Positions 107 to 62,967 of a stretch of DNA of 64,000 nucleotides are shown here, in pieces. The position numbers were made by a program, and so were the translations under genes. The stretch lies in the NCBI GenBank assembly GCA_964586045.1, contig CAZPFY010000001.1:154-64153 (forward strand), in the 5' to 3' direction. Source of the stretch: an uncultured Pseudomonadales bacterium (GTDB lineage Bacteria > Patescibacteriota > Microgenomatia > UBA1400 > MFAQ01). Position 1 is the stretch's first letter; each line of letters starts with the position of its first letter. The notes under the pieces were generated by a model. The model was given only the letters and a program-made list of their open reading frames with translations, did not search any database and had not been told where the DNA came from.

Positions 107-150
107 GGCGGAGATTGCTTCGGTTCAGAGTACTGAAACTCGCAATGACG
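107..150. mobile_element. MITE/RPE-like repeat, right-half copy (GGCGGAGATTGCTTCGGTTCAGAGTACTGAAACTCGCAATGACG)
   Basis: Same family as 59500..59604. It is intergenic, upstream of the rho promoter. Confidence 0.6.
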
Positions 151-271: not shown

Positions 272-1918
272 ATGGCACCAAGGCCTAAAAAGATCGTAGA
301 TAGTGGTTTGTCGATTGTAGAAGACTCAAAAAAGAATCCAGAACCTGTTGTAGATACTATAGAGAATACTGTTGTGGCTAAAAAAGCTGTTAATGTCGAA
401 AAAACGGCGAAGATTGCTTCGGTCCAGACACCAGAGGGGGATGGATCCTCCCGTGGAGATACACGGGATAAACTACTCAAGTCCGGGATGACAGATGGAG
501 GAGTAAAAGAACTCAAGGACTCAAAACTTCCGCCAGAGGTGGACAGGCAAGAACTTAAAACAGAACTAGTTAGAGTTGAAGAACAAAAAAAAGAAGAGAT
601 TAAGGCACCGGAGAAGTATGTGATTCCCCCTTCTAACTTACCTAACCAAAATCAAATGAGGCCTGGATTTGCGCCTAGGTATGGAAGTTTTAACAGAAAC
701 CAAAATTTTAATAACAATAATAACAATCAGGGGTTTAACGCTCCGAGGTTTTCGCGCCCAATTATAGCCAGTGAGCCAATAGTAACCGAAGAAATAACGG
801 GAATTTTTGATCAAACAGGAACCGACGGCCGAGGCATTGTGCGAGCTGGATTTCGCCCTGGAGAAACGGACGCGGTAGTTCAGTCGATGCAAGCTAAGCA
901 AGTGCGCCTTCGCCCTGGAGATATGGTAACTGGTCAAGCCAGAAAACCAAAAGAAAATGAACCTTACTGGACAATGATGCAGATTACGAAAGTAAACGGA
1001 GAAGAACCATCAAAAATGTTTGAGAGACCAAGGTTTGAAAAGGGAACGCCAATTTATCCGTTTGAAAAATTTAAATTAGAAACAAGTAAAGAAATTTTGT
1101 CGACCCGTTTGGTAGATTTGGTCGCTCCTATTGGTAGAGGGCAACGTGGGCTGATTGTATCGCCTCCCAAAGCTGGAAAAACCACGGTGATAAAAGAAAT
1201 GGCAAGTGGAATTGCGACCAATTATCCCGATGTTCATATTATGGCAGTGCTGGTAGGTGAGCGACCTGAAGAAGTTACGGACATTAGCCGACATATAATT
1301 GCGATAACCAAAAATAGTGCCATGCCAGGAGAAACAGCGGCGAGTAACTTTGATGAAAAGGCTGAAGACCAGACAAAAGTTTCGGAACTAGCACTGGAAA
1401 GAGCAAAAAGGCTTGTGGAAATGGGGAAGGATGTAGTCATTTTGTTGGACTCAATTACGCGTTTGGCTCGGGCGTATAACTTGGCAATCCCGACGTCCGG
1501 AAGAACCTTGTCGGGTGGATTTGATCCCGCCGCTCTTTATCCACCAAAAAAATTCTTTGGTGCAGCACGAAAAATTGAAGGTGGGGGGAGTTTGACGATT
1601 ATTGGAACAGCTTTGACTGATACTGGTTCGCGCATGGATGACCTGGTTTATGAAGAATTTAAGGGAACGGGTAATATGGAACTGCATTTGGATCGCAGGT
1701 TGGCTGAACGCAGAATTTATCCATCGGTAGATGTAATGCGGTCTAGTACTCGTCGAGATGATCTTCTTTTTGAATCTATGGAATATCAAAGTGTCATCCT
1801 TATGCGTCGTATGCTCGATATGCTTAATGACGGAGAAAGAACTGAAGTTTTAACGGGTAGAATAGCGAGAACCAAGAGCAACAAAGAATTTTTGGCTTCG
1901 TTAAAAGATGGAGGATAA
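272..1918 (+). CDS. rho: transcription termination factor Rho, with an N-terminal Asn/Gln-rich low-complexity insertion
   Basis: 548-aa ORF. VDLVAPIGRGQRGLIVSPPKAGKTT (P-loop) and RFEKGTPIYPF match the Rho ATPase core. There is an N-terminal RNA-binding-region extension containing NNNNNNQGFN. Confidence 0.95.
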   Translation: MAPRPKKIVDSGLSIVEDSKKNPEPVVDTIENTVVAKKAVNVEKTAKIASVQTPEGDGSSRGDTRDKLLKSGMTDGGVKELKDSKLPPEVDRQELKTELVRVEEQKKEEIKAPEKYVIPPSNLPNQNQMRPGFAPRYGSFNRNQNFNNNNNNQGFNAPRFSRPIIASEPIVTEEITGIFDQTGTDGRGIVRAGFRPGETDAVVQSMQAKQVRLRPGDMVTGQARKPKENEPYWTMMQITKVNGEEPSKMFERPRFEKGTPIYPFEKFKLETSKEILSTRLVDLVAPIGRGQRGLIVSPPKAGKTTVIKEMASGIATNYPDVHIMAVLVGERPEEVTDISRHIIAITKNSAMPGETAASNFDEKAEDQTKVSELALERAKRLVEMGKDVVILLDSITRLARAYNLAIPTSGRTLSGGFDPAALYPPKKFFGAARKIEGGGSLTIIGTALTDTGSRMDDLVYEEFKGTGNMELHLDRRLAERRIYPSVDVMRSSTRRDDLLFESMEYQSVILMRRMLDMLNDGERTEVLTGRIARTKSNKEFLASLKDGG

Positions 1919-1963
1919 CACAAAATTCAAAAAATCAAAAAATCTAAAACGAAAAATAATGAA

Positions 1964-3109: not shown

Positions 3110-4657
3110 TTATTTGGGTGTTGGGTAGGTGAAGGAGGATTCGAGGCTGGTGGAGAGGGTTTGGCCGAAGAAGTTGAGAGTTTGGGGGGAGCTTGGAAAG
3201 CCATTTTGTTTGAGGAGAGTAAGGGAGTAATCGCAGATAGTGTTGGGGAGGGGATGGATTGCCGCGGCCGACCCAAAGTCGGCCTCGCAATGACGATTTG
3301 GGAGGGAGTAGGAGAGGTTAATTTCACTCGTGTTACCGGCGAGGGTAAGATGCCAAAAATTTACGATCTTAAATTTTTGATTGGAGGTATTGGCATAGGT
3401 TGCCGCACTATCCCCCGGATCCAGGTCCGGGGCTAAAGGCTGGGACGCAATGACTGGTGTTTGGTTGATGAGGACGTCGGGGGAGAAACCGGCGGAGGTG
3501 GTGGCTACTTCGGTATGAGAGATGTTGATGTCGGTGGCGTTTTGGGGCAGATAGAGGCGTAGGAAAGCGATGTAGTGGCCACCGTATTGAAGGGGTGGGT
3601 TGGGGTTGGCCTCGGGGGAGGAGTTTTGGAACTGGATGTTTACTTGGTGCTTAACTTGTATGGATTGCCACGTCGGAGTACCTCCTCGCAATGACGGACT
3701 GGGGTTCTGCTTAGTGGCAAGGCTGTCCGGAATGACAGAAATGATGTGGGTGGTGTGGCGAGTGACGTAGGCGTTGGCCTTGTTAGCGCCAAGATTGACT
3801 TCAACTAAACCAAAATGGTCAAAAGAACTGGGTTGATATTCACCAGCGAATTTTTGAGAGATGAGAAAATTTTGAAAATTGGAATTGGTGCTATTGAGGA
3901 CGATGTTTTGATTTTTTAAATCGGTATAAATTATTTTGGTGATCTGATATTTTTTGGAAAGACTAAGGGATTTTATTTTTTTGAATGTTGCGGTGCCAAC
4001 TGCGTGCAGAGCATCGGCTTTTTGGGTGGAGCCGGGGAAAAAGTTGAGTTCGGCTTTGCCCTGGAGGAATAAATAGAGATTGTCGGGAGTGATAGTAGCG
4101 TTGTATTCGGAAACGGTAACTGTGCCAATGAGATTAAATATTTTTTTAATGGTGGAGAGATTGATTAGGCCAAGAATGTTGGGATTGACCTCCTTACCCT
4201 TTTCTAAAAACCAACGAATGGTGGTAGCGGTGGTGGGAAAGTTGGGGTCCCAGTCGGCATTGGCTAACTCCCAAGTGCCGTGGCCAAAGGCTTGCTGGAT
4301 AGGATCTGGTGGCTTAACGTAGCCGTCTAGTTGGCCATTGGGGACGTAGATGTCGTGAAATGAAATGCTAATATCGTCATTGTGAAGAACAGAGTTCTGA
4401 AGCAATCCCCGACGCGGAGATTGCTTCGTCGTTTCACTCCTCGCAATGACGGCTTTGGCGTAGGAACCGGCAAAGCCACCATTGGCGCGAGCTTCGGTAT
4501 CGTTACCTAGAAGAAAGAGATAGGTGGTGGGGGAATTTTTGCCTAATAAATAATTTATATATGGCAAAAAAGGATTCAAAAACTCAAAAACTCGAAAACT
4601 CAAAATGATGAGAATTGTAATTATTAGAAAAGTGGTGAGGAGAAGTTTTTTCTTCAC
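3110..4657 (-). CDS. DUF4012-like membrane-anchored protein carrying four in-frame repeat-element insertions
   Basis: 515-aa ORF with an N-terminal TM helix. LFLLGNDTEARANGGFAGSYA resembles the DUF4012 signature. It contains four copies of the TCGCAATGACG-type repeat and one AAAACTC tract, all in frame. Confidence 0.55.
   Translation of the reverse strand: MKKKLLLTTFLIITILIILSFRVFEFLNPFLPYINYLLGKNSPTTYLFLLGNDTEARANGGFAGSYAKAVIARSETTKQSPRRGLLQNSVLHNDDISISFHDIYVPNGQLDGYVKPPDPIQQAFGHGTWELANADWDPNFPTTATTIRWFLEKGKEVNPNILGLINLSTIKKIFNLIGTVTVSEYNATITPDNLYLFLQGKAELNFFPGSTQKADALHAVGTATFKKIKSLSLSKKYQITKIIYTDLKNQNIVLNSTNSNFQNFLISQKFAGEYQPSSFDHFGLVEVNLGANKANAYVTRHTTHIISVIPDSLATKQNPSPSLRGGTPTWQSIQVKHQVNIQFQNSSPEANPNPPLQYGGHYIAFLRLYLPQNATDINISHTEVATTSAGFSPDVLINQTPVIASQPLAPDLDPGDSAATYANTSNQKFKIVNFWHLTLAGNTSEINLSYSLPNRHCEADFGSAAAIHPLPNTICDYSLTLLKQNGFPSSPQTLNFFGQTLSTSLESSFTYPTPK
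3250..3295. mobile_element. MITE/RPE-like repeat, partial copy inside the DUF4012-like ORF (in frame)
   Basis: GGGGATGGATTGCCGCGG...CTCGCAATGACG, near-identical to the 7467..7509 copy. Translated as ...SLPNRHCEAD... on the minus strand. Confidence 0.6.
3441..3456. mobile_element. degenerate MITE/RPE-like repeat terminus (GGGACGCAATGACTGG) inside the DUF4012-like ORF
   Basis: Terminal motif only. Weak. Confidence 0.3.
3662..3697. mobile_element. MITE/RPE-like repeat, partial copy inside the DUF4012-like ORF (in frame)
   Basis: GGATTGCCACGTCGGAGTACCTCCTCGCAATGACGG, translated as SLRGGTPTW. Confidence 0.55.
4399..4452. mobile_element. MITE/RPE-like repeat, partial copy inside the DUF4012-like ORF (in frame)
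   Basis: GAAGCAATCCCCGACGCGGAGATTGCTTCGTCGTTTCACTCCTCGCAATGACGG, translated as VIARSETTKQSPRRGLLQ. Confidence 0.6.
4576..4605. repeat. AAAACTC heptamer tandem tract (about 4 units) inside the DUF4012-like ORF
   Basis: CAAAAACTCAAAAACTCGAAAACTCAAAA, translated on the minus strand as FRVFEFLNPF. Confidence 0.7.
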
Positions 4658-6339: not shown

Positions 6340-6582
6340 ATGGTTACAACAATAAACATCTCTTTACCCAAGAAACTCAAGGAGGCGGCCGATGCTCTAG
6401 TCGCTGACGGGGAGTACGCATCTTTTAGTGATTTGGCCAGATCAGCGATACGGGAGGCTGTCTTGGATCGTAAATATAAAGCAATTATTGAGGAATCGAA
6501 GAGGGAGGAGGCACTTGGAACAGCAACTGTTTTGAATGGCCCAAAAGATATTGACGAATTTATGAGTAAATTTGGAAAGTGA
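6340..6582 (+). CDS. ribbon-helix-helix (ParD/CopG-like) antitoxin
   Basis: 80 aa. INISLPKKLKEAADALVADGEYASFSDLARSAIREAV has an RHH beta-alpha-alpha pattern. It overlaps the downstream toxin-like gene by 4 nt (ATGA). Confidence 0.55.
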   Translation: MVTTINISLPKKLKEAADALVADGEYASFSDLARSAIREAVLDRKYKAIIEESKREEALGTATVLNGPKDIDEFMSKFGK

Positions 6583-6836
6583 TTATCGTTTCAACAAAAC
6601 CATTTATAAGGCAACTAGCTGATTTGATTCGGAAAAATAATAAATATAAAATTAAGGTGGCAAGGATATTGAAGTTAATGGATTTTGACCTTAGACATCC
6701 TTCTTTAAGAATTCACAAAATAAAAGGAGTAGACTACTATTCTGTGTCTGTAGACATGAAGATTAGAATACTCTATGAAAAAGATAGCAATATGATTCGT
6801 TTAATTGAGATAGGTAATCATGATGAAGTTTATTGA
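6579..6836 (+). CDS. RelE/ParE-family toxin-like protein
   Basis: 85 aa. It is translationally coupled to the upstream RHH gene. The C-terminus KIRILYEKDSNMIRLIEIGNHDEVY resembles RelE/ParE toxins. Confidence 0.5.
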   Translation: MIIVSTKPFIRQLADLIRKNNKYKIKVARILKLMDFDLRHPSLRIHKIKGVDYYSVSVDMKIRILYEKDSNMIRLIEIGNHDEVY

Positions 6837-7596
6837 AGAAATAATTAAGTGGGGGAAGCTGACACCAATATATGATTTGTTGGGGAAGCGGTCGTATGCC
6901 CAGAGCGGGGAGGATGTGGTGGTGGATGCTATTTTGAATCGACAGAAGAGAGGCTTTTATGTAGACGTGGGGGCATATCACCCCAAAGTTTTTTCGAATA
7001 CTTATTTGTTTTATAAACGGGGATGGAAAGGGGTTTGTGTTGAGCCAAACCCGGGGGCAAAAATACTTTTTGAGATTGTGAGACTGAGAGATAGGTTTGT
7101 GGGGTGCGGGGTGGGGGAAAAAACTCAAAAACTCAAAAACTCAAAAACTCAAAATAATGTGATGGAATATTATGTTTTTGGGGAGGGGGCGACAAATACA
7201 TTTTCGAAAAAACAAAGAAATGAAAATATACGATCTTCAAGGAGACTCCTTGAAGTTAAAAAGATTCCGGTGAAAACCTTGAAGGAGATTTTGGATGAGA
7301 ATGTGCCAAAAGGGCAAAAGATTGATTTGATGAGTGTGGATGTGGAAGGGATGGATTTGGAAGTATTGAAAAGTAATGATTGGAAAAAATATCGACCGAA
7401 GGTGGTGATTGCGGAAGATATGACCGGCGTCATCGCGAAGCGTGAAATGCTGTGGCGATCCAGAAAGGGGATGGATTGCCACGGTTCGAGTACGAAACTC
7501 GCAATGACGAATGATAGTGTTGTTGGTTATTTGGTTGGGAAGGGGTATAGATTGGTAGGGATGACGGGGTATTCGATGATTTTTAGAATCGGCTGA
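6820..7596 (+). CDS. FkbM-family methyltransferase carrying an in-frame heptamer tract and a repeat-element insertion
   Basis: GFYVDVGAYHP, VCVEPNP and IDLMSVDVEGMDLEVLKS match the Methyltransf_21/FkbM pattern. The AAAACTC x4 tract at 7128-7155 and the repeat at 7467-7509 are translated in frame. Confidence 0.65.
   Translation: MMKFIEEIIKWGKLTPIYDLLGKRSYAQSGEDVVVDAILNRQKRGFYVDVGAYHPKVFSNTYLFYKRGWKGVCVEPNPGAKILFEIVRLRDRFVGCGVGEKTQKLKNSKTQNNVMEYYVFGEGATNTFSKKQRNENIRSSRRLLEVKKIPVKTLKEILDENVPKGQKIDLMSVDVEGMDLEVLKSNDWKKYRPKVVIAEDMTGVIAKREMLWRSRKGMDCHGSSTKLAMTNDSVVGYLVGKGYRLVGMTGYSMIFRIG
7128..7155. repeat. AAAACTC heptamer tandem tract (4 units) inside the FkbM-like ORF
   Basis: AAAAACTCAAAAACTCAAAAACTCAAAAACTCAAAA, translated as KTQKLKNSKTQN. 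Confidence 0.75.
7467..7509. mobile_element. MITE/RPE-like repeat, partial copy inside the FkbM-like ORF (in frame)
   Basis: GGGGATGGATTGCCACGGTTCGAGTACGAAACTCGCAATGACG, translated as RKGMDCHGSSTKLAMT. Confidence 0.6.
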
Positions 7597-9270: not shown

Positions 9271-12200
9271 TTATTTTGCGTTGTTAATGGCCGTTATAGC
9301 ATTTTTGATATCTTGAGGAATTTGTGAGTCTGTTTGGGGAGCGAAGGTGTCCTGGTTTTTGTTGCGAATTAACTTGGTCCCTTCTTGCCCAACCAGAGCT
9401 TTGAAACCGTCTTCGTCAACAATATAAACATACGGATTGCCGAGTGGTTTGTTGTCGCCAGTCTCCTTGACTGAGTTGGCTTCTGTAACTACGGCATACC
9501 ACTTATTATTCAAGATATATGTTTCAACAATTGCTCCGGTGTGTTTGTCGCCGTTGTTTGTAAAGTAGTCTCCTTTTTGAAAATTGGAAGGTTTAGGATT
9601 TTCGACGATATCTACATTTCTGAGAAAGTCGGGATTGGTAAGCTGGTCTGATGGATAGACGATGGCCTGGTTGCCTTTGGAAACATTGTAGTCAGGATAC
9701 AAGGGTTTTTCGCCATTTCTGCTTGAGTAAATCCCGGTGCTGTAGGCCCACATAAGACATTGGACAATTTCTCTTTCTTTTAGGCCAAAAGTTAAGCCAA
9801 TATAGTTTTGGTAATATTTTTTGTAATCGCTGCTAGAAATAATTCCTTGTAGATTTTTTTCCATGTAATTATTGAAAGCAGTTACATGTTCAGAGTCGTT
9901 ATAAAGAATGCCATCGTATTCTCTGACTATTTTGGCGATATAGGTAATTTTTTGGAGTTGGACTATGGTGGGGTCGGTAGAGTTTGGGTCGAAACTTTGT
10001 GGATTGAGTAATACGCCGTGACCTTGAAGGTCTTTATTTAGTTCCGTGTTGTTTGGGTAAATGGAGTCGGCTTCTGAGTAGTTATATCTTGGGGTGGGGG
10101 TAGTGGTGATAATTTCGGTGGGGGTAGGTGTAATTGTCGGTTGGATTGTGGGTGTGGGGGTAGTGGTGATAATTTCGGTGGGGGTAGGTGTAATTGGGGC
10201 AGCGGTGGTATAGAGCTGGCTATCCATCCAGGGGAGGAAGAAGATAAGGCTCAGGGAGCTGACGGCGGAGATGATGGTTACTCTTACTATTTCGCCCGCG
10301 GTTTTGCCGATGTTTTTTGTTTTGGTGAGTGGGATGGTGTCTGGTGCTGATATGCTTTCTACATTTTTGCTGCGGGTGATGAGGGAGTCACGATACATTC
10401 TGATTGGTTCGAGATTGTTGAGTAGAGGAGTAATGTCGTCCAACTGAGTGCTAAAGCTGTTTTTTTCGGTGCCTTCCTTTAGATACATTGCCTGTTGTTT
10501 GAATTCAAGAGGTTTATTGGTTAGGGCACCACTATCGATGACTTCGGCTCTTGTTCCATAACTGGTTATCTTGCTATCTGGGTAGTAAATTGAATCGATC
10601 CAGACTTTTTCACCCGTGGCAGTAGAAGCCATAGCCCACTCTACAGTTCTTCCTTCGAGTACTCCTTGATGAATTTCTATTTCTATCTTGCCCAAGATAG
10701 AGTCATTGATCGCGTATCTTCGAATTGGTTGTTTGGTAAAGTCAGGAATAAAGCCATCCGGATATTTAAAATTTCTAAAAGTTGCCGTGAAGTCGGTTTT
10801 GGAGTAATCCCTGTTGTAGTATGCGTCGTACTCTGGAGAATAGGTTCCTGGTCTAAAATATTCAACATTTTCGAGCCCTGGAATATCTGTATGGCCAATG
10901 ACCTCTTTGGTGTAGGTGTTTGAAGGATGGGGTATGCCATCGGCGGGAATAAAGTCGGTGACGAAGTTGCCGGTATGGGTTTTGCCTGACTTGCTGTTTG
11001 CTACCAAAGCTTCGTTAATAAGGTGATGGGGTTTTGTTTCTTGGGTGTAGTGAATATCTCTACCTTTACTAAAGGTGTTTCCAAAAGTTCCTGGGGTGAC
11101 TTTCCAGCTACCATCAGCTCCAGACTTCCAAGCGACACGAGCGACGTAAGTACCATTTGGTAGGGTGGTGTAAATGATGACCATTTCGTAGTTACTTCCT
11201 CTGGGTGTGATGGAGTTAAAAGAGTCGGAAATGTAGAATTTTTTTCCGTCTATTTCGACAAATTTGGTTGGTAAATAGGTATCGTCAGCAACAATTTTTT
11301 TGAAGTACTCTTGTGGGTGTTCGGTTTTTAGTTTGACAAACGTTTGTTTTTCGGTGCTGGTAATTGCTTTTGGTAATTCGCTTATTGGTGAGGTTGGCGT
11401 TGGTGTTGATTCTGTTGTCTCAGTCTTGACTTTTGGAGTAAGTTTTTGCCGAGAGATGATTTTTATTTGAGATTTGATATCGTCGATGATGCTCGGGACG
11501 GTGTGAACAATGTTGTAATTTTGGAGATCCGTGTAGTACATAATCATTTTTGTGTAGTTGGTATCGGTGATTGGGGTGAATTTTCCATTGGCATCGAGAT
11601 GACCAAATTCAACAAAAGCGCCTCTGGGCAGGCTTTCAAAAGCGGGTAGATAGTTTGGTCCTTCTTCTAGTGAATAAATGACTCTTGGGGTGCGTAGCTG
11701 AAGATTGTCATTGGTTGAGGTGAGGGCAATGTAAACCTGTTGACCGTTGATTTTGCTGGGAGGGATTGTGCCTTGTTTGGTACCTCCGACTCGGTATTCA
11801 TCACCTGGGTAGATAGCGACGTTTCCTGTCGGCTTGCTTAAACTGGTGGTGGTTTTGTTTGATTTGAACAATTTTCTTGGTTGGAGAGCAGAATTTATTT
11901 GGTAGGGATTTCCGTCGGGGGAGAAGTAGAGTTTGGTGTTTTTGGAGAGAATAATATAGTCACCTGCTTGGGCGCTGGCTTGTCCGCCGGCACGGATGCG
12001 TTGACCGTTGATAGAAACGGTGGAGTTGTTGTTTGCTTTTGGAATCGAGACGAGTATTGATCCATCACTTTCTTTGGTGAGGGTGATGGGGTTACGAGAA
12101 ACCTCGATATCGTGGATGGCTTGATATGGATTGTTGCTATCGTCCGCTTTGGTGTATCTTCCTATATTAAACGATTTACCATTTTCGAGAGGAATGATAG

Positions 12201-15200
12201 AAGATGTTGATTGTCTAGTTTCGGTTCTGCCAGTAAGGATTTCTCTTGCTAAAATAATAACTCCTTTGTCGTTTGTATTTGTCGTGGTAGTGGTCGCGTC
12301 TGTCGCAGGGGCTGTGCGAGAGGAGCGGAGTGGAACTGAAGGAGTGGAAAGAGAACTAGTTTTTTTTTCTGCTAGATAATTGGTAAGTTCTTCTGCGTTT
12401 GGATTGTGACCGTATTTTTCTCGAAACGCAATCATGGCTTCGAAAGTTTTATTGTTTGTTATTTGTTCTGGAGATTGATAGGTTGCAGCGTTTTTTGGAG
12501 CGCTGGTGTTGGCGAGTCGTGCTAATTCTTCTGCACTGTTTACTCTTGTGTTGGCAGCTTTTGGATCTGGGATCGATTTTTGGAGGTAGATATTGGCTTG
12601 TTCTTTGATTATTGCAGCAAGGTCGGCTTTGTCGGTGGCGCTGGTGTTGGGGTCGTTGTATTTGTCGATAAATTTCTGAAGGTAGTCTCTGGTTGGTGAG
12701 TCGGCAGGAGGAAGGACTTTGGAGGAGAGGCCGGTGATTGATTCGAGAGATGTGGGGGTGTTGTTGGTGCTATTTGGATTTTGGGTGTAGTAGTTTTCAG
12801 CAACGATTCTTTCGGCTTCTGTTCTAGATAGATTAAATTCTTTAACTAGATTATCGATAATTAAATACTCAGTTTTTTCATTACGATTGTCGAAGATGTA
12901 TTTTGTTGCTGTTTGAGTTGATGGAGATGGTTGTGTTTGGGTGCGAACATTAAGATCGCGTAGGGGAATGGCTTTGGAAATATTTTCGTTGAGGAATTCG
13001 GCGACCTGCATGCCGATACTTCTCGTTGTGTGTGCTGGTGAATTGATTGCGTCTTTTGGTACATATATTAGTCCGCCAGCTACTGCAACAAAGTCTTTGG
13101 TAGATTCACTTCCAATTTTTACTCCGCCAGACTCGCGGATTAATTCTCCTTTCCAGATTTTGGAAAGTGTTTTTAGGAACCAGTTTTGGGATTTTGTGGT
13201 AGGATTGTTTTTGTAGTTTTTGTTTCCTGGGTATCCCGGAAAGTCGTTGATATCTGCTATGAGGTTTGACTGATTGATAATTTTTTGTAGGTCGATTAGT
13301 TTTGGATTTTTCTGGTCTATCAGATTTATGACTTCAGCTACAGATTTGTTGATTATATCTATGCCGTTATCAGAAGCGATTTTGATTATAATTGTGTCTG
13401 GTTGGTTTGCAGGGATGAGCATTTCGGTGGTGGTGAGTGGTGAGATAAGATTTGATCTGTGTTTGAGTGTATAAGTGACTTCTCCCGTATCTTGGTCTAT
13501 TTTGAGAATGGTGACATTTTTATCAGTGATTCTTTTATCTGCTCCTAAAAATGTCATTAGGCTTTTTTCTCGCATGCCTCTCACTTTTTCTAAAACTTGT
13601 TGTGAAGATAAGTCAAGTCTGTCTCTGACTGATTTGTTGTCTGTGTATAATCCGGTACTGGGGTTGGTGTCGTTGGGATCGATTTGTCCTCTCTCTCTTG
13701 CCCTAACAATTGCCCTACTAGTTAGTTCGTCGACTTTGGACTCGAAAACTGTGGTGGCTAGTTCAATGACATCGGTGTTATCGAGAGGTGAATTGGCTTT
13801 AGAGATGAAGTCTCTTTGGGCAGTGTCTAGGTCTCGATGGTATCTTGCCATTTCTGATAGATAATTTTGGTCTAAACTTAGTGCACGAATTATTTTTATT
13901 TCTTCATCATTAAAATTATTTTTTAGAGTTTCAGTAAAAAAAGACTCATTTTCTGAGGCAATCCCATTTCGCTCTTCCACAATTTTTGCTATTTCAAGAT
14001 TCCTGGGGTTGTTGGTGTTAGCAATTGTATTGCCAGAATCATTTTGATTTCTGTTTAAATATCTTTTTGTGGCGAGTGAAGTTAAACCACTTATTTGTTT
14101 ATCTGTTTGTTCTTGAATTTGTGATTTCGCAGTGGCAATATCTGCTTCGCTGTACCCGTTTTTGGGGTTACTAAAGTCGGCTTCTACCTCGTTAAAGATA
14201 TTTTGGGTTTTTGTAATTTCGGAAATATAGTTTGGATCTTTTGAAAGCATCCTAACCGTTTCAATTTCGGCAGGAGTAAAACCTTCGTCTTGTAGTAGGC
14301 GATATGTATAGAGTGGTTCGCTAGTTAATTTTTGGTGATACTTTTCTGTTGCTTGGGCGATGGTGACATTTCTTTTCGTGTTTGCTGGAGATGAATCTGC
14401 TGGTGATTTAATAAATGGCGTGTCGACTATTTTGGTTGTGTCTGTTGTGATGCTGAATTTGCTATAGATGTTTTTGAGTACAGCTTCGAGTCTTGTTGGA
14501 TTGGCTGCGGCAATTTCTGCCAGCTTTTTTTCTGTTTGTGGAATTTGATTAATGGCCTCAATGGTGAGGTTTTTAACGTCAGTATCGTTTCTCGCTTGTT
14601 TTTGTAAACTTAAAATATATTCTTGATCAAAGCTAAGTTTGAGAGCAATATCTACCTCTTGGTCATTAAAGGCTAGTTTTTTTAAGTGGCTTCTAAAAGC
14701 GTCTAGATTCTCTACTGCTTCGTAGTGATATCTTTCAGCTGCCATAGAGATACCAATAATTTGGTTTTCGCTTAATTCTGTAGCTACGGGTAATTTGGAG
14801 TTTGGGGTGGAGGCGGTCTTTAGCGATTCTGGGTCGAGACTTCTGGGACTTCTGTAGGCTGTGTCATTGAAAAAAATGCCAGGTACTTGAGTGACTGGGT
14901 CTTTTCCTTTCAAGTTTGCTTCGGTTATAAAACTAAAATTGTGATTGGGTGGATTTTCGCGTTTGATCATGTCGGGAGTTAAGCCTTCGACTTTGGCTCC
15001 ACTTTCAAGCACTTTTTTTATAAAGATCGCGTCTGGTTGGTCGCCTGCGATAATCATCGTTCCTGATATATCTTTTCCTAATATTTCGCTATATCGTTTG
15101 GTTAGATAGGTTATCTTTCCTGTTGCTTTTTCTGTTGACAAAATCACGATAGTTGGATCGGACATTCGGTTGGCTGCAGCAGACAGATTGGTCATTTCAG

Positions 15201-18200
15201 CTACGCCTAGATCTTTTATGATTTCTGCGAGCTCGGTTTTTGTAGCACCAAAAGCTAGTTCCATCTTGCGAATATTTTTGGTGCTGTAAACTGGATTTTG
15301 GATTATTCCCAAGCCTCCAAACACTTTGGTCATGGGATAATTTGGATTTATTTTGTCGCCGACGCCACCGGATTCGCCACCTATTCTTCCATACCAAATA
15401 TCGGAAAGTAGTTTTAGAAATCGGTTTTGGGGTTGGGTTGTGTTTGTTGTTTGTCCGAGGGTAACGAGGCTGTTGTATGACGATTCTGGAGTTCCGGGTG
15501 ATAAAAATACGTTTTTAATTTTAACCAAAGCAATTGTTAGATTGTTATATCCCAATGGTTTGGGATTTCCAGGTTTAGTTCCGATTGGTTTTTCAAACTT
15601 CAAAGTGTATTTTTCGTATTTACTAGTTAAGTTTTCGATGGCTATCATTCGATCTTCGTCATTGGTGTATGTCTTAACATTAATTTCGTCTAATTCACCG
15701 ACGAACATTTCAGCAAGGCGATTTTTTTGAGACTTGGTTAGAGTTGGGGGAGCGGTTGGGGTGGTGGGGATTGGGGGTGTTGCGTCTGGTTTTGGCTGGA
15801 GATTCTCTTCACTTATGGCGTTTTTGGCGCCGGCAACAATTTTTTTACTTTCAGCATTTATAAAATCTATTTCATCTGAATAACGCATCTCGTCAACTGT
15901 GGCGATTCTGTTTTCTGACTCGTCGTTTGGATCACTTAAGAGCTCTTTTGCGATGCGTTCATTTGCGATTCCTCTTTCTTCTAGTGCATTTGTTAATAAT
16001 TGGTCTGATCCAGACTCTCTTATCTTTGCAGCGATTTCTAGATCGGAGTTAGAAAAGCCTCGCTCGATGAGTTTTGCTCTAAAATTTGCATCGGATAGAT
16101 CCCTGTAAGTGATAACAGCTCGGACTATGGAGGAGTCTGCGGTAGGAGACCTTGTCAGGTTTTCAAGGTTAGATGCTGTTTCTCGAAAATTTCTACTGTT
16201 ATTTGTTGTGGTGTCGATGGTTTTTGATTTTATGAGGTTGGCGAGGGTGATGTCGTCGGTAGTTTGGGTAGGAATTTTTCGATTGAAGAGAATGTCTTCA
16301 CTGATACCGAGACTGGCGAGTTTTTCGGTGAGTCCGGGGACTTGATTGTAGAGAATTGAGTCGGTGGTGTTGTCGAGTGACTTGTGGGTTGTTCCAGTGG
16401 GGGAGTTTGTTGAATTATTTGTAGCTAAATTTGTGGCTTTGGTTATAGCAAAAGAGGTGAAGTTGATGGCTTTATCGACAGCTTGGTCGAAAACAATAGC
16501 CATGATTAAATTGCTTTTGGCAGCATCATTATTTTCTTTGGTAACTGTTTGGGCAATTTCTTTACAGGCACCAGAGCCAATACCATTTTTTCTTTCGCAA
16601 CTAGTTAGTTCTATTTCAGATTGGGTGTCGATAAAACCAACAGTGCTTTTGAATTGATAGTCGGCTTGAGTGCCGCCTATTAGTGAATTGCCGAGGCTTG
16701 ATGCTAAGTTGATACCAGTAACCCCGGCTTTTTGGAGTAAAGTTGTTGGGTTTGGTAGTTTGAGATTGGCGACGTAGGAACCAGTACCAGCAGAGATGGC
16801 GCCCATGACAGGGGCGATGGCGAGGTTGATGACGGCTTGACGCTGGTTTTCTTTTTGAAGAGCATCAAATTGTTCGTTGATGAGAGTTTGCATGGAAGCT
16901 TGGGCTGTTATTTCTGAGTTGTTTACGACGGCATTGAGATCGGCATTGTACTGTTGGTAGGTATTGGTAATCGCTTGATAATTTGCAAATTGATTATCTT
17001 TGGTGGTACAAGAAGCACCGATTTTGACACCTTCAGCGGTGTCGCAAGCGGCACCTTGGTTGCTATAGATAGCTTGAATGAGGGTGGCGGCTTTGTCGTT
17101 TCCGACAACTTTGGCAATGCCTTGTCTTTCAGCTTCTATTTCTTGGGCAGTGGCTGTCCCAAGAACTGGAACCAAGTTGGAAATTGCAGCAGCTGTTCCG
17201 CCGATGGCGCCACATGCAAGTGCGCCTGGTCCAAGCTCGGCACAAAGGGCTGTGGCAAGGATCGCGGTGCCAACAGCACCGACAACCCCTGTACCCCTGG
17301 TGTAGGTTTCGGTAACGTAGTAGCGATCTAGCATTTCGTTGGCTAAATTGGTTTTTTGTTGTTCAGTAAGCGGTTTGTTTGCTTCGAGCTGATTTCTGAC
17401 TGAAGCGGGAACGCTGATAGAAGTTCCGGACATATTACCAAAACCATATTTCGGATCAAAAAACTGAAGGCGATCATGAGCTTCGGCAGAGTTAACTGCT
17501 TTTTTTCGAGCTTCATCAGACACCGCAGCGTTATCGATGGTGGCAATGTTGCTTTGGAAAGCATCGGGGAGGGCGTCTTTTTGGATTTGATCGTTAAAAA
17601 CTTCGGCTAGATAGGTGTCTGAATTTTGACTAACGATTTTTGTTAACTCTGTTAGAGCATTTTTTCTGGCCTTAATATAATCATTGCTTGACGCGCCACC
17701 ACCGACGGTACTTAAAGCTTTTTGGCAGAGACTGTCGAGACCTTTGTTGATTTCACAAGCTTTTTTGATTGCTAGATTTTGATATTTTGTATCGGCGTTT
17801 TCCCATTTTACTGGTTTTCCGTTGTCGCTAAGACCTTTGATGGTTTGCTCTTGGGTTAGCTTGTTGGACAGAGAAAGAATAATAGGATTCATATCTTGAC
17901 CAACTTTGTAAGCCGAAGCTTTTTGGATATCGGCAAAGGCTTTGGGATTTTTGTTGTACTTGTCGGAATAGGTTTGATAAACAGTAAAATCTTTGGAAAT
18001 ATCTTCTCGGAATTTGAGAGCATACGCGTCTCTTTGTTCGATGGATTGTTTTGAGAGGAGACAGGTGGCATCACAATTTGGCATTTTGTCTTTTAGATAG
18101 GCCCAGGTGGCTTGAGTTATAGCTTGGTCCAAAAGCACGACTTCGTTTTTGACATTGTTATTGATGCCACTGACTTGTTTGCCTTCTTTAAAATTGGGAA

Positions 18201-22045: not shown

Positions 22046-25000
22046 TTATTTGGTTTGGACCAGCCAGAAATTGAATGAGATTTCGTCTTCTATTGGTTGC
22101 GGAATGGCGATGGTGAAGCCAACATGGCTTTGTTTGGATTTTACGAATAAGACTTGATTGTTGGTGTCGGAAATTGGGGTGATGTAAACCAAAGTATCAT
22201 CGTTTATTTTGGAACTATTTATAAAAATTTCGGAAGAACCTGTTGCAATAGAGGCGGTGCCAATGGTGGAGTTGGAGGATGTTTGACCGGAGATAGTGGA
22301 GTCTAAATTATTTCCGGAAGCGATGACTAATCCGTAAGTGGTAAGCTTGTCAAAGTTAGCTGAACCAGAAGCGTCGACAGAGCCGACAACGTTACCATCC
22401 TGATTGAAAAGTGCTAGGATTTTTGCTGAATCGGTAGCGAGTTCACCTTTACCGACAGCGAGGGTGCCAGAGACAGTAGCGGTACGAGTGTCGAGGTTGT
22501 TGGCAAAAATATTTCCCGTAACGATTAAGTCTCCATCTACTACAATTTGACCATTGGGGTAGAGGGTCATGAGATTTGCAAGTAAGTGGACTGGTTTGTC
22601 CCCGCTTGGTTGGATAAAAAGATCGGTGCCGAAGGAGCTAATAGATTGGCTGAAGATGGAGCCGTTAGCCAGGATGTCGTTTGTGGTCAAAACTTCGATG
22701 TTTAAATTTTTAAATGCCATGTCGGTTGGCAAAGAAGCTGATTCGGTTGCCAGAGATGAAAGCTGAAGGGGATCGTTGGTTGGATTTGTTTCACTATCCA
22801 GGGCGCTAAAAAGACTGTCGTATTGGGAATATTTTTCTTGAATAGAGGCAAAAATTGATGAGGCGGTGGAATATTTTTCGTTTAAAACGTCAAGTTGAGC
22901 TTTTAGTTTGTCGATGGTTTCACTCTTTATATTGTTAGCGTACAAAGTTCCTGAGACGGTGGCGATATTAACCTTTAGCTGATCGATGTCGGCGATTGGA
23001 GTTATTAGTTTTTGTTGAACAGTAAGATTGTCGATTAACAAATTCATAACAATGTTGGAGCCGAGCTTGAGATTGTTAATAATTTCGCTAGCAATTGATG
23101 ATGAGCTAGTTGCATGGTTCTGATTTAATTTTAAAGATATTTGATTGGTAAGAATCGTAATCTCTTCGTTATTGAAGCTTGAAGAAAGAGAAGCGATTTT
23201 GGCATCTAAGCCTTCTATTTGGTTGGCGTAAATTTTGTCTGCGGTGATTGTGTTGGTGACAATACTGTTTGTATTTAATTCGTCAAAATTACCTTGCTTG
23301 GCAAAAACGGTAGAGGCCTTGATTTGTCCTTCTACTATGAGTAGGGGTTGGGTGTTGTCGGAAAGTAAGTTGGGAGAAATGGTTATAGAAGCAGTAGAGG
23401 CCATGGGAGTAAGGAAACTGGTTTCGATGGTGGGAGAAACTAGCTGATTGGTAGAGATTGAACCGGTGATGACTTTGGCAAAAGAGCCAACGGTGTTTAC
23501 AAATCTGCCTGCAGTTTCGTCGAATAGTTCGTTGGTGTTGGAAATTAGGCGATAAACCCGACTGCTAAAAGTGGTTGGGTTGGGGGCGATACCATTGTTA
23601 ATGTGAATGAGAACAACGCCTTTGCCAATGTTGGGAATCCAGTCTTCAAAGGCGGTACCAATTACTTTGTCGTTTGGCATAGCTTTGGTGGCAAAACCAG
23701 GAAGAGGTGAAGAAGTGAGGCTGTCGCCAGCTTTGATATCTTGTGAGGAAGGATCAATTTTTACAGGTATTCTTCCTGCCAAACCAAGAAGTCGGCGGTT
23801 TTCGGCGGTGATTCCTAGCTCTTGTCCTGCTTTAGTGGAAATTGCACCGACTAAATATTGATCATTCGGAGAGCTTGTTTTGCGAAGAATTGGCACTCCA
23901 AACGGATCAGTTTTTCCCGTAATAGCGACTAAATCGCCGGCTTCAATACTTGGATCTTCGACGGTGTACCACTCAGCGAGATCAGCTCCGTAGACAACGG
24001 CGTCTAATCTGATTTGAATTGTTTCTCCGGTTTTGTTGTAAAGGCGGACGGTGTTCATGTCGGTCTGAACAATTTTGAAACCATTGCTCCAATCGAGCTG
24101 AACACTGCGGAGAGTGGGATGGTAGGCCGGATTGGTAGTAGTGAGGATGGCACGATATTGGAAGTATTCGTTGGGGGTAGAGCTTACTGTGGAGCCATCG
24201 GCATTTGTTAAGTATCTGTCGGCGGTAATATTGTCGACGTATAAAGTAGTGTTTGTTGAAGGAAGGGAGATGCGAAGTTTGGTAACCGCGTTGCGATTGG
24301 TCGTATTGATGTCGGTGAGATCCCAGTAGATTTTTTGCCAAGTGTTGGCGGCTTGGATGTAGAAAGTTTTTTCTTGTTCGGTGCCGGTGGATTCGCCAAA
24401 ACCAAATTTGACAAGATTGCCGGAGCTAGTGGCGTAGACCCAAGCAGTGAGGTAGTCGTAGTTGGTAAGGTCTTTGGCGGTAACTGTAGTTTCGGAATAA
24501 CCATTGGGGCTGCCGACTGAAGAAAACTTGGTCATGTTGCCAACGGTTGCCTCATCTTCATCTTCGAAATAGTCTACGTTGCGAGCTACGCCACCATCTG
24601 CTCTGGTTAAGTCAACCATACCCCAGAGAGTGTCGGTGTTCATATCTATGACGTCGAGTTTGTTGGTATTTGCCACGACTGGTTTCCAAGCTTCCCAGGT
24701 GCCATCTATAGAATTGGCAGATTTTCCAGAGCGAGTTTGGAGCTCTATCATGCCGTAAGTGTCGAGGTCGGCAAGCCACTTGATTTTGTTGTAGCCCGTC
24801 GAGTTTGGAGTTGGCATTTCTTCGGAGATGTACATGGAGTAGTTGTAGGATGGGGTTTGGGCGACGGCTGCGGCCGGGCTGGTCGTTCCCGTTAGGGTAG
24901 AGGCGTAGTAAATGGCTACCCTGCCATCTCCACCACTACCCCCTTCGAAATTGGAAAGACCCGCTATTTGTGCACCGCCATTGCTACTGACAAGGCTGGA

Positions 25001-45052: not shown

Positions 45053-45110
45053 GGTAGTATTATAACCTATAGTTGCTAATTTGTCAAGTTGGGGAATTTT
45101 TGGCAAAAAA
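45053..45110 (+). repeat. conserved intergenic motif copy A (GGTAGTATTATAACCTATAGTTGCTAATTTGTCAAG, then TTTTTGGCAAAAAAA)
   Basis: Near-identical ~35-bp motif found four times in the window. It may be a promoter or operator. It is immediately followed by a bidirectional terminator-like hairpin at 45112-45165. Confidence 0.6.
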
Positions 45111-46131: not shown

Positions 46132-46167
46132 GGGAGTATTCTAGCCTATAGTTGCTAATTTGTCAAG
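46132..46167 (+). promoter_or_regulatory. conserved intergenic motif copy B, probably overlapping the promoter of the 46208 gene (TTGCTA, 17 nt spacer, TAGAAT)
   Basis: GGGAGTATTCTAGCCTATAGTTGCTAATTTGTCAAG, with TAGAAT 17 nt after TTGCTA. About 40 nt upstream of the ATG. Confidence 0.5.
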
Positions 46168-50180: not shown

Positions 50181-50386
50181 TGCCAAAATTTAGTTTAAAA
50201 AAAAGAATCCCCGCTCTGGAGCGGGGTTCGGTTGGGGTGAAGTAGGTTGCTTGGCCTAAGTGTCTGTTGTCGCACCGTCGAAACGCAACAGTGGGGCTTA
50301 GCGGGCTCTAATCACACCCTTTTGGGTATGGAAGGAGGGGGAACCTCCTTTTTCGGGGCTGGATTTCCAGCAAAAGTTAAGTTGTA

Positions 50387-50421
50387 GGAGTATTTTATCC
50401 TATAATTGTTTATTTGTCAAC
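50387..50421 (+). promoter_or_regulatory. conserved intergenic motif copy C upstream of the 50525 gene
   Basis: GGAGTATTTTATCCTATAATTGTTTATTTGTCAAC is the same motif as copies A and B. Confidence 0.45.
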
Positions 50422-59495: not shown

Positions 59496-59499
59496 CCTT

Positions 59500-59604
59500 G
59501 TCATCGCGAATCTCGTACTCGAGCTGTGGCGATCCCCGCTACACAAGATATCACTCAAAGCTCGGAGATTGCTTCGGTTCGGAATACCGAAACTCGCAAT
59601 GACG
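59500..59604. mobile_element. MITE/RPE-like palindromic repeat element, complete copy (TIR GTCATCGCGA ... TCGCAATGACG)
   Basis: About 105 bp, bounded by imperfect inverted repeats. The internal hairpin TTCGG-AATA-CCGAA is shared with other copies. It is intergenic between dprA and a terminator. Confidence 0.7.
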
Positions 59605-61203: not shown

Positions 61204-62838
61204 TTGAGATACAATAAAATCATGTTGGCACGAATTGAGAGCGTGGCTTGTGTGGGACTAGAGAGTTTTTTGGTGGAGGTAGAAGTGGATGTGGCGGAGA
61301 AGGGCTTCCCCGGGTTTAGTATTGTGGGGCTGGCTGACAAAGCGGTGGGTGAGGCAAAAGAGAGAGTAAAAACAGCCTTGATTAATAGTGGTTTTGAGTT
61401 TCCACAGAAGAAAATAATCGTCAATTTGGCACCGGCCGATCTGCCTAAGGAGGGATCGGCGTTTGATTTGGCGATTGCTATGGGGATTTTGGTGGCTAAT
61501 GGGGATATCGAGATAAAAACTCAAAAAATCGAAAACTCAAAAACTCAAAATATCGCTCAAAACTCGGAGATTGCTTCGGTTCGGAATACCGAAACTCGCA
61601 ATGACGACGTGGAAAGTAGCGATATATTTTTTGGGGAGTTGTCGCTCGATGGGAGTTTGCGACACACCAAAGGGGCACTTTTGGTAGCTCTTTTTGCCAA
61701 AAAAGAGAAGAGGAGGAGAGTGTTTGTGCCGGTATTGTCGGCGAATGAGGCGGCGGTAGTGCCTGGAGTAGAGGTAATGCCGGTGAGGAACTTAAAAGAA
61801 CTAATAGTTCACTTTTTGGGAGATAAGAAGATAAAACCTCTGAGAACAATTGAAATAAAAAGCTTGGTGGAAACGGCGATGCCAGACTTTGACATGGCGG
61901 ATATTGTAGGCCAGGAATCGGCGAAGCGAGCCTTGATGGTAGCGGCGGCTGGGGGACACAATATGCTCATGTCTGGGCCACCAGGATCGGGTAAAACCAT
62001 GCTCTCCAGGGCTTTACCTGGAATAATGCCCCCGATGACCGAGGAGGAGAGTATGGAGGTTACTAGGGTTTACTCGGCTTCGGGATTGATGGAAGCGGGA
62101 GAAGCGATTGTGCGCAGAAGGCCATTTCGGTCGCCTCATCACTCGACGAGCCTTGCTGGCTTAATAGGAGGTGGCAGTAGGCCTATGCCTGGGGAAGTGA
62201 GCCTCGCTCACTTGGGGGTATTGTTTTTGGATGAGATGGCGGAGTTTCCCCGGAGCGTGTTGGAGGCCATGAGGCAACCAATGGAGGATGGGAAGGTGGA
62301 GATATCAAGAGTAGCCGGGAGAATTAGCTATCCTGCGTATTTTCAGCTCATTGCTGCGGTGAACCCGTGCCCTTGTGGCTATTTGGGGCACCCAACTAAA
62401 GAATGTAAGTGTACGAGTAGAGAGGTTGAGAAGTATAAAAGAAGGATAAGTGGGCCTATTTTGGATAGAATAGATTTGCATATCAATGTCCCGGCGGTGG
62501 AGACAGAAAAGATCGTGGGGAATGTAGAAAAGGGAGAAAGCTCTCTGGTGATTAGACAAAAAATTGTCAAAGCGCGACAAATTCAAAGCACAAGGTTTGG
62601 TAAAGGGAAAATTTATTGCAATGCCCAGATGAAAAACAAGCAAGTGAAGGAGTTTTGCGATCTGGATGAGGAGGGGTTAAAAATCCTGAAATTAGCCATG
62701 GAAAAGTACGATCTGTCGGCCAGGGGCTACTTTCGGATTTTAAAGGTGGCCAGGACGATAGCGGATTTGGAGAATAGTGAGAAGATTTTGAGCTCGCATT
62801 TGGGGGAGGCGCTGCAGTACCGGGAGAGGGTGTTTTAG
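61204..62838 (+). CDS. comM: YifB/ComM-family Mg-chelatase-like AAA+ ATPase with an in-frame heptamer-tract plus repeat-element insertion
   Basis: N-terminal Lon-like ChlI domain. Walker A is MLMSGPPGSGKTM. The insertion IEIKTQKIENSKTQNIAQNSEIASVRNTETRNDDVESS lies between the ILVANGDI and FFGELSLDG motifs, which are normally about 10 aa apart. Confidence 0.9.
   Translation: MRYNKIMLARIESVACVGLESFLVEVEVDVAEKGFPGFSIVGLADKAVGEAKERVKTALINSGFEFPQKKIIVNLAPADLPKEGSAFDLAIAMGILVANGDIEIKTQKIENSKTQNIAQNSEIASVRNTETRNDDVESSDIFFGELSLDGSLRHTKGALLVALFAKKEKRRRVFVPVLSANEAAVVPGVEVMPVRNLKELIVHFLGDKKIKPLRTIEIKSLVETAMPDFDMADIVGQESAKRALMVAAAGGHNMLMSGPPGSGKTMLSRALPGIMPPMTEEESMEVTRVYSASGLMEAGEAIVRRRPFRSPHHSTSLAGLIGGGSRPMPGEVSLAHLGVLFLDEMAEFPRSVLEAMRQPMEDGKVEISRVAGRISYPAYFQLIAAVNPCPCGYLGHPTKECKCTSREVEKYKRRISGPILDRIDLHINVPAVETEKIVGNVEKGESSLVIRQKIVKARQIQSTRFGKGKIYCNAQMKNKQVKEFCDLDEEGLKILKLAMEKYDLSARGYFRILKVARTIADLENSEKILSSHLGEALQYRERVF
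61515..61553. repeat. AAAACTC-type heptamer tract inside comM, immediately upstream of the repeat-element copy
   Basis: AAAAACTCAAAAAATCGAAAACTCAAAAACTCAAAAT, translated as KTQKIENSKTQN. Confidence 0.75.
61563..61605. mobile_element. MITE/RPE-like repeat, right-half copy inside comM (in frame)
   Basis: CTCGGAGATTGCTTCGGTTCGGAATACCGAAACTCGCAATGACG, identical over 43 nt to the 59562..59604 part of the intergenic copy. Translated as SEIASVRNTETRND. Confidence 0.7.
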
Positions 62839-62840
62839 TT

Positions 62841-62967
62841 CGTCATTGCGAATCTCGTACTCGAGCTGTGGCAATCTCCGAGGTTGAGTGAAATTTAGCA
62901 GGCGGGGATTGCTTCGTCGTTTTGCTCTCCCGAGTAGATACTCGGGATCCTAGACTCGCAATGACGG
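62841..62967. mobile_element. MITE/RPE-like palindromic repeat element, complete copy (CGTCATTGCGA ... TCGCAATGACGG)
   Basis: About 127 bp with terminal inverted repeats. The internal GGGGATTGCTTCGTCGTTT segment is shared with the 4399..4452 copy. It is intergenic, downstream of comM. Confidence 0.7.

Follow-up and report, generated by a model that had tools for sequence, protein, structure and literature searches.

The 64,000-nt stretch of DNA analysed here (the window), from an uncultured groundwater bacterium of the Candidate Phyla Radiation (CPR), contains a gene for an FkbM-family methyltransferase (fkbM) that bears two short repeated DNA modules, a tandem octamer tract and an inverted dimer of palindromic hairpin units, both read through in the open reading frame (ORF) as extra loop residues. 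We suggest, with a probability of about 0.7, that these represent two independent families of short repeats that have settled in protein loops tolerant of insertion, where selection keeps the reading frame; the palindromes are relatives of the repeats tied to the nuclease Ssn, and the tract would change in length by slippage. Coordinates of the features are collected in Table 1.

The search for FkbM homologues returned 1,530 sequences, mainly from Microgenomates/Collierbacteria, of which 28 were aligned (alignment A2). Orthologues that lack the inserts are about 215-225 residues long, and the alignment locates three insertion hot spots common to orthologues: A after GEDxIAxxEL, B after GVG and C after EDLxFD. 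The proposal of the earlier note on this DNA, that the gene has taken up in-frame insertions, is borne out by this comparison. Many orthologues carry inserts of their own at the hot spots, with either tract-type (KNSRNQ, RTQELKNS) or arm-type (LAMT, xRND, RHCE) peptides, the LAMT, RND and RHCE peptides arising when TCGCAATGACG or its complement is read in one frame or another. Tract peptides are found in 13 of the 120 best homologues, arm peptides in eight and both in four; the proteins with insert peptides have a median length of 263 residues compared to 225 for the remainder. An AlphaFold2 model of FkbM built on the alignment has a mean pLDDT (predicted local distance difference test) of 81.9 overall, and this value falls exactly at the two inserts (residues 101-110, mean 54; residues 201-230, means 50-61). 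By alignment, both modules are in-frame insertions relative to the ~225-residue orthologues and, in the predicted structure, lie in loops of low confidence. The identical FkbM protein is encoded on separately assembled ENA and JGI groundwater-metagenome contigs, which rules out an assembly artefact.

The tract had been read as four copies of a heptamer, AAAACTC. The repeating unit is in fact eight nucleotides long: Tandem Repeats Finder gives a period of 8, 4.5 copies and 100% identity to the consensus AAAAACTC at 7119-7154, and the heptamer dimer AAAACTCAAAACTC is found nowhere in the window. The repeat-element copy GGGGATGGATTGCC...TCGCAATGACG is present at 7467-7509 as described, but it is only the right half of an 82-nt imperfect palindrome, CGTCATCGCGA...TCGCAATGACG, which forms a long hairpin (-41.4 kcal/mol, z = -5.3). 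This inverted dimer consists of a left unit at 7428-7460 (CGTC strand plus), a spacer at 7461-7473 and a right unit at 7474-7509 (CGTC strand minus), and three of its six frames are open. The ORF translates as EKTQKLKNSKTQNN over the tract and RKGMDCHGSSTKLAMT over the palindrome; the predicted peptides that span the inserts are EKTQKLKNSKTQNN and GMDCHGSSTKLAMT.

The same two modules were noticed earlier in comM (61204-62838) and in a DUF4012 gene (3110-4657, minus strand), and to these hosts we can add the N-terminal extension of rho. The arm 12-mer CTCGCAATGACG has eight exact occurrences in the window; with up to two mismatches there are 12 matches where 2.6 +/- 1.5 are expected, a number reached in none of 100 shuffles, and the octamer dimer with up to three mismatches gives 20 matches where 4.1 +/- 2.3 are expected (again 0 of 100 shuffles). 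In ComM, residues 105-140, which correspond to tract and arm, are unmatched in the alignment to the solved ComM structure 8rxd. The claim that the phenomenon is systematic is upheld by the several window genes concerned, by the ComM insertion relative to 8rxd and by the insert peptides in many orthologues. The tract in the DUF4012 gene is read in antisense, its frame being held open by a CGA variant kept in four genomes, and a tract occupies the same site in the related loci L005, L006 and L007.

Each of the five intragenic arms of the window has a reading frame of its own, and both strands are used: NRHCEAD, PSLRGG and AVIARS in the minus-strand DUF4012 gene, KLAMTND in FkbM and ETRNDD in ComM. 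That one arm DNA is read in five frames indicates that the DNA, rather than the peptide, is the copied unit, and the varied frames together with the intergenic location of some copies point to selfish DNA rather than a protein module. We suggest that selection frames the inserts, such that within genes only copies that leave the reading frame open would survive; the retention of frame-keeping copies would explain why one motif appears in five frames across genes. Over the window and 21 related loci, 19 of 32 arms (~59%) fall within intact ORFs that encode 120 residues or more. The tract has the general form (AARAACTC)n. All three forward frames of (AAAAACTC)n are open and give the same cyclic hydrophilic peptide of K/N/S/T/Q/L, so that copies with a net length that is a multiple of three would be harmless in a loop; every reverse frame has TGA.

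Alternatively, an insert might be removed before or after translation, as an intron, an intervening sequence or an intein, in which case the frame would be irrelevant. The dimer is a strong hairpin and thus a possible substrate for an RNase III-type enzyme, and the rRNA genes of CPR bacteria are well known to harbour intervening sequences. However, Rfam gives no match, whether the gathering threshold or an E-value threshold is applied, inserts of 36 to 108 nt are too short for group I/II introns or inteins, and the open frames and the net lengths in multiples of three, seen in every intragenic copy across many genomes, would be needless if the inserts were excised. We regard excision as extremely improbable.

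The modules are dynamic on a short time scale, since three FkbM genes with ~95% identity differ by whole modules. At site B, the gene of P0005 has one octamer, that of P0006 has four (+24 nt), and that of P0004 additionally has a nested 21-nt palindrome. Site C is empty in P0004 and P0006 and holds a tract in L001, while in P0005 a full hairpin dimer directly follows a tract. All the differences at sites B and C among the near-identical genes keep the frame, and the comparison shows that palindromes do settle within tracts or next to them. The 21-nt insert of P0004 (L207) contains the perfect palindrome CCTGCCTGCCGGCAGGCAGG, sits inside the tract and is read LPAGRQV; it may represent a third small repeat family. 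We suggest that the octamer tract lengthens and shortens by slippage.

Single 8-nt gains and losses could serve as a phase-variation switch (a contingency locus) that toggles fkbM, comM and the envelope gene. A unit of eight is not divisible by three, the fkbM tract is perfect over 4.5 copies and the number of units differs between close strains, all of which would suit such a switch; methyltransferases, competence helicases and envelope proteins are classes that are often phase-variable. The sole length difference seen, however, is exactly three units and keeps the frame. Most tracts are imperfect, some are intergenic or antisense, and several species retain the tract of the DUF4012 gene in the same place. 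We saw no allele with a frameshift, though none was specifically sought. We therefore consider a switch unlikely and prefer slippage that is tolerated in permissive loops.

Aligned copies of the palindrome have a constant shell, GATTGC-YWCG ... CTCGCAATGACG, round an inner hairpin whose sequence varies with its pairing retained. The window type of unit is CGTCATTGCGAG-(variable inner hairpin)-CGWRGCAATCC, and the unit hairpin reads CGTCATTGCGAGTTTCGTACTCGAACCGTGGCAATCC. A scan of metagenome contigs with the pattern GATTGC-N(12-42)-CTCGCAATGAC gave at least 120 loci (653 kb, contig GC 28-70%); the figures for these loci, here and below, hold among the matches listed. The tetranucleotide NNCG, which the pattern does not demand, is present in 95% of the distinct instances of GATTGC-YWCG-hairpin-CTCGCAATGAC, so the instances are homologous and chance is excluded. 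The arm motif is spread across phyla, and it is also carried on plasmids of Methylosinus, Novosphingobium, Legionella and Nostocales.

When the ORFs adjacent to the motif were clustered, the standout family consisted of proteins of ~95 residues with a GIY-YIG domain only (PF01541). There are seven such genes in the 653 kb of motif-selected DNA, whereas 1.29 Mb of control DNA has a single one (P ~1e-6), and six of the seven have inverted units on both sides. All seven lie on the minus strand, but the arms are arranged symmetrically and a strand rule drawn from this carries no information. The reciprocal test gave the same association: eight of eight GIY-YIG genes picked solely for the similarity of their proteins, with sources in Acidobacteriota, Chloroflexi, a cyanobacterium, Aerophobetes, Uhrbacteria and a further member of the Patescibacteria, are flanked by GTCATT[G/C]C...G[C/G]AATCC units. 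Units of the ATTGCGAG type flank PF01541-only genes in L152, L155, L161, L188, L208, L212, L214 and L215, and in the last two, which are CPR loci (L214 Uhrbacteria), the flanking units are of exactly the window's type. The flank of the GIY-YIG gene in L213 is an exact match to the published NTS consensus (PMC11893778).

The association of the hairpins with GIY-YIG genes is a rediscovery of a known result. The CGTC-tagged repetitive extragenic palindromes (REPs) have a CGTC tag, a stem that opens with A-T pairs and carries a short loop, and a tail resembling CCA, and occur mainly as inverted dimers (Di Nocera et al. 2013, PMC3733652). Their members include Neisseria dRS3 and Rickettsia RPE-4/RPE-6; intragenic copies exist in several species, and the family has no dedicated transposase (PMC3733652). 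NTS and the Ssn-related motifs (SRM) flank ssnA, which encodes a 94-residue GIY-YIG nuclease (Chenal et al. 2025, PMC11893778). The Neisseria enzyme, Ssn, binds one strand of the hairpin as single-stranded DNA and cuts a few nucleotides 5' of the hairpin (PMC11893778). The window units open with CGTCAT or TGTCAT as an unpaired terminal tag and end in tails of GCAATCC(A) or GCAATCT, and inverted dimers number four in the window and six in the 22 loci. Judged on these sequence features, the palindrome is a variant member of the known CGTC-tagged REP superfamily, a compound-hairpin form of the Ssn-related motifs. The window copies, which have no gene between their arms, would be non-autonomous relatives of the units that flank ssn. 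Their spread or rearrangement would be the work of an Ssn-type nuclease supplied in trans, or would come about as copies recombine with one another. Ssn homologues are present in Patescibacteria.

Several observations weigh against this interpretation. The stem of the window units is 5-6 bp (ATTGC/GCAAT) followed by an internal loop, in place of the 8-9-bp stem and 4-5-nt loop of CGTC REPs; the inner segment of 12-40 nt, with its own variable hairpin, greatly exceeds the 4-5 nt by which those families are defined. The SRM pattern HGTCWYN(0-2)YYVSBRHN(0-5)WNVSBRGN(0-2)RNCYNB has no match on either strand of the window; it does match canonical NTS units in L213 and L209. With tblastn, no ssn gene was found in the 64 kb of this genome that the window covers or in the 299 kb of related loci (L001-L021), and for the present genome action in trans would be conjecture. 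There is no target-site duplication or conserved target at the four dimers. The mobility of NTS/SRM has no experimental demonstration even in Neisseria (PMC11893778). As for the inserts themselves, their presumed translation is read off intact frames alone, and the 82-nt dimer has a length that is not divisible by three and makes a net insertion of ~63 nt relative to the nearest uninterrupted loop, a mismatch which means that the original insertion event cannot be reconstructed.

Other identities for the palindrome were tried. A classical miniature inverted-repeat transposable element would have the inverted arms, but the four dimers lack target-site duplications and the partner gene encodes a GIY-YIG nuclease and no transposase. 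A composite insertion sequence bounded by the arms was rejected because the inverted pair in L085 simply flanks uvrD/pcrA and gatC. Nor is the palindrome a known RNA family: no Rfam match was obtained at the elements up to E = 5, and two tRNAs alone reached the gathering threshold. Literature searches by the arm and tract sequence strings gave nothing relevant, and a search on CPR and palindromic in-frame repeats found nothing. We note three further observations on the neighbourhood of GIY-YIG genes. In L155 (4259-6132), genes for a reverse transcriptase and a bAvd-like four-helix bundle, resembling a diversity-generating retroelement, lie between clusters of CGTC units and beside ssn, a single case. 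In L052 (11300-11760) and L119 (2200-2760), more distant small GIY-YIG genes stand between tRNA gene copies or fragments instead of CGTC hairpins. On a cyanobacterial contig (L211, 500-1410), ssn lies amid ATTGC-type units that alternate with a GATGGCC...GGCCATGAC type.

Another possibility is that the inserts are functional additions, kept for the role of their peptide or hairpin as linkers, interaction motifs or NTS-like transformation signals round dprA and comM. Ssn modulates natural transformation in N. meningitidis (PMC11893778), three units of the window are located in or beside dprA and comM, and some inserts are kept at orthologous sites. Yet the same DNA is read in five frames, the inserts are missing from many orthologues and are predicted to be disordered, other units reside in unrelated genes, and the window and related loci yielded no ssn. 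A function of this kind seems to us very unlikely, and we retain the reading of the inserts as repeats tolerated in loops.

The earlier note suggested that the tract either belongs to the mobile unit or is a preferred target of it. The first suggestion is not supported, since the arm motif occurs across phyla without the tract (no octamer tract is present in the 653 kb of motif-selected loci from other taxa) and, of 22 Collierbacteria-like loci, six have arms only and two have tracts only (locus-level co-occurrence, Fisher P = 0.36). In a scan based on the FkbM alignment with one genome per species (80 loci, 21 Collierbacteria-like and 59 from other phyla), arms and tracts are confined to the 21 Collierbacteria-like loci and the window, save for the control locus L066, from Acidobacteriota, which has a single arm match. 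The tract, being confined to Collierbacteria-like loci whereas the hairpin extends across phyla, is lineage-specific.

It remains to weigh whether tract and palindrome could nevertheless form one composite mobile unit, or the tract be the element's specific landing site. Within loci, tracts are nearer to arms than random placement predicts (three observed within 150 nt against 0.4 expected, P = 0.007; six within 500 nt against 1.2, P = 0.0004). The two are directly juxtaposed in comM, P0005 site C and L006 site B, and in P0004 a palindrome lies inside the tract. Site C offers a strain series of no insert, tract alone, and tract with dimer; tract and arm peptides co-occur in the 120 FkbM homologues (Fisher P = 0.005). 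The 3' flank of several tracts, CTCAAAATGATGAG or CTCAAAATAATGTG, resembles the arm end CTCGCAATGACGAG at 13 of 17 positions (window 4598-4611 and 7147-7160, and L206 fkbM site B), and this flank is common to unrelated genes. On the other hand, seven of the 18 tracts are in arm-free loci (L001, five; L017, two) and arms without tracts include those of L010 (six) and L002 (four); 14 of the 18 tracts have no hairpin unit inside 150 nt, and the ssn-flanking units examined never carry tracts. Shared permissive loops and shared lineage could account for the co-occurrence. The proximity behind the idea of a preferred target is thus real, but shared loops would give the same pattern, and our data do not separate true target preference from joint survival in the same loops. 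We consider a composite unit or a specific landing site doubtful; in our view, the octamer tract is an undescribed companion module, separate from the palindrome's mobile unit.

Solo units and tracts have a strict orientation. The GC skew of the window is strongly positive (+0.16 to +0.41 in 2-kb bins) independent of gene orientation, and the related loci behave likewise; the exception, at 24-28 kb, is within the Gly/Pro-rich part of a giant gene. A stem-agnostic detector identified 53 units in the 22 loci, six pairs of which are dimers and 41 of which are solo. The CGTC strand is the C-rich strand in 39 of the 41 solo units (P = 8e-10, with an effective sample below 41 as many copies are orthologous), and in three unrelated, strongly negatively skewed contigs four of four copies stand in the same relation to the skew. 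The A-rich strand of the tract is on the G-rich strand in 18 of 18 cases. Because the host genes of arms are on both strands (13 intragenic arms in minus-strand genes and six in plus-strand genes), gene strand is not the cause of the polarity. In other taxa, the motif shows no polarity (45 vs 56, 24 vs 23 and 8 vs 8). We rejected the octamer as a polar chromosome signal of the KOPS or Chi kind, as single AAAAACTC words outside tracts are skewed the opposite way (10 vs 31). Mutational skew or coding constraint was also rejected as the origin of tract polarity; the reverse frames all have stops, yet tracts in minus-strand genes stay plus-oriented.

In most bacteria, an excess of G over C marks the leading strand. 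If this holds here, the strand that Ssn could recognise would be kept off the lagging-strand template, which is transiently single-stranded. Were Ssn to cut only the strand exposed on that template, the polarity would be the footprint of self-cleavage avoidance. More broadly, and tentatively, a replication-coupled, strand-specific process on single-stranded DNA might lay down or purge units and tracts in this CPR lineage, although we hold this to be rather unlikely. If true, the strand-specific system would go on supplying the small proteomes of CPR bacteria with new in-frame variation in loops.

Table 1. Repeat modules of the window and the genes or gaps that hold them
Feature	Position	Strand	Remarks
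FkbM-family methyltransferase gene	6820..7596	+	258 aa; PF05050 E=3e-22 (Pfam), TIGR01444 (NCBIfam), homologue alignment A2; hosts both insertions
Octamer tract in fkbM	7119..7154	+	AAAAACTC x4.5, 36 nt; read as TQKLKNSKTQNN; hot spot B, past conserved GVG
Inverted dimer of CGTC-tagged hairpin units in fkbM	7428..7509		82 nt, tags outward; read ..VIAKREMLWRSRKGMDCHGSSTKLAMT.. at hot spot C
In-frame insertion in comM, 108 nt	61516..61623	+	tract 61515-61554, linker, solo unit 61569-61606 (CGTC strand -) read ..ETRNDD..
Octamer tract in DUF4012 gene	4570..4605	+	gene on minus strand; antisense reading ..SFRVFEF..
Hairpin dimer in DUF4012 gene	4375..4451		right arm read AVIARS
Solo hairpin unit in DUF4012 gene	3663..3696	-	read PSLRGG
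Solo hairpin unit in DUF4012 gene	3257..3295	-	read NRHCEAD
Solo hairpin unit	113..150	-	upstream of rho start
Partial arm-like copy in rho N-terminal extension	380-428		
Weak tract in rho N-terminal extension	507-528		
Degenerate octamer tract AAAAATCA	1921..1949	+	intergenic, just past rho stop codon
Intergenic hairpin dimer	59499..59604		between convergent dprA and histidine-phosphatase genes; run of T downstream
Intergenic hairpin dimer	62841..62966		directly after comM stop codon

The intergenic dimers were considered as intrinsic terminators. A simple scan gives no call, the loops being too long, and we claim the downstream run of T alone. Elsewhere in the window, two giant ORFs on the minus strand are present, one of 3445 residues (9271-19608) with no Pfam match and one of 3281 residues (22046-31891) with only two N-terminal phage-integrase SAM-like domains. 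Immediately before fkbM (6340-6836), a ribbon-helix-helix (CopG-like) ORF and an overlapping 85-residue ORF that reaches the fkbM start codon look like a small toxin-antitoxin pair. A 36-nt repeat occurs three times (45053-45088, 46132-46167 and 50386-50421); its reverse complement has TTGACA, a 17-nt spacer and TATAAT, which makes it a conserved module that resembles a minus-strand promoter. At 51640-51697 there is a tandem repeat with a 16-nt unit, GTTTGTCGGTTGACCA x3.6.

Of the known systems, the Rickettsia palindromic elements (RPEs) offer a close functional parallel. Like RPEs, which are translated as additional surface segments, the window palindromes lie in frame in unrelated and often essential genes, where the protein fold can accommodate them, and also in intergenic DNA, and both belong with the CGTC superfamily (RPE-4/RPE-6, PMC3733652). 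The hosts differ, a CPR bacterium (Microgenomates/Collierbacteria-like) as opposed to an alphaproteobacterial endosymbiont, and so do the units: the window has the ATTGCGAG stem with a variable inner hairpin, a strict polarity of solo units and the octamer tract, and we liken it to RPEs by description. The Rickettsia phenomenon, selfish palindromes read inside essential genes, is thereby extended to the CPR. In CPR metagenomes, such inserts make protein families look larger and more fragmented, and they would explain the recurring LAMT, RND, RHCE, VIAR and KNSKTQ peptides. In a different lineage, the cyanobacterial STRR/SDR repeats consist of very small palindromic units nested in tandem heptamer repeats and are mostly intergenic; we mention them as a lead only, as lineage and sequences differ and the tandem unit is a heptamer and not an octamer.

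With dRS3-NTS/SRM, the palindromes have in common the CGTC tag, the stem starting with AT, the CC(A) tail and the inverted dimers, and ATTGCGAG-type units flank ~95-residue GIY-YIG genes elsewhere, including in CPR. The palindromes are tied to repeats for which the cognate enzyme, Ssn, had not been characterised before 2025. The window stem is nonetheless ATTGC rather than ATTCC, its compound loops are 12-40 nt rather than 4-5 nt, the SRM pattern is unmatched and the window has no ssn. The likeness to REPIN/RAYT lies in the inverted pairs of short hairpins that are non-autonomous and tied to a gene, present in one copy, that has these hairpins on its flanks, and in the recognition of the hairpin as single-stranded DNA; the tag is CGTC instead of GTAG, the enzyme is a GIY-YIG nuclease instead of a Y1 (IS200/IS605-like) transposase, and the mobility is without demonstration. 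New here are the CPR host, which is absent from the published accounts (PMC3733652, PMC11893778), the variant with a compound hairpin, the very large share of intragenic copies, the dynamics seen between strains and the polarity of strands. The intragenic majority, the module differences between near-identical strains and the polarity could make CGTC/SRM mobility and a strand-specific mechanism testable. In comparison with what is on record, an intragenic fraction of ~59%, as opposed to the 2% reported for N. meningitidis NTS, and the strand polarity of solo units and tracts look new.

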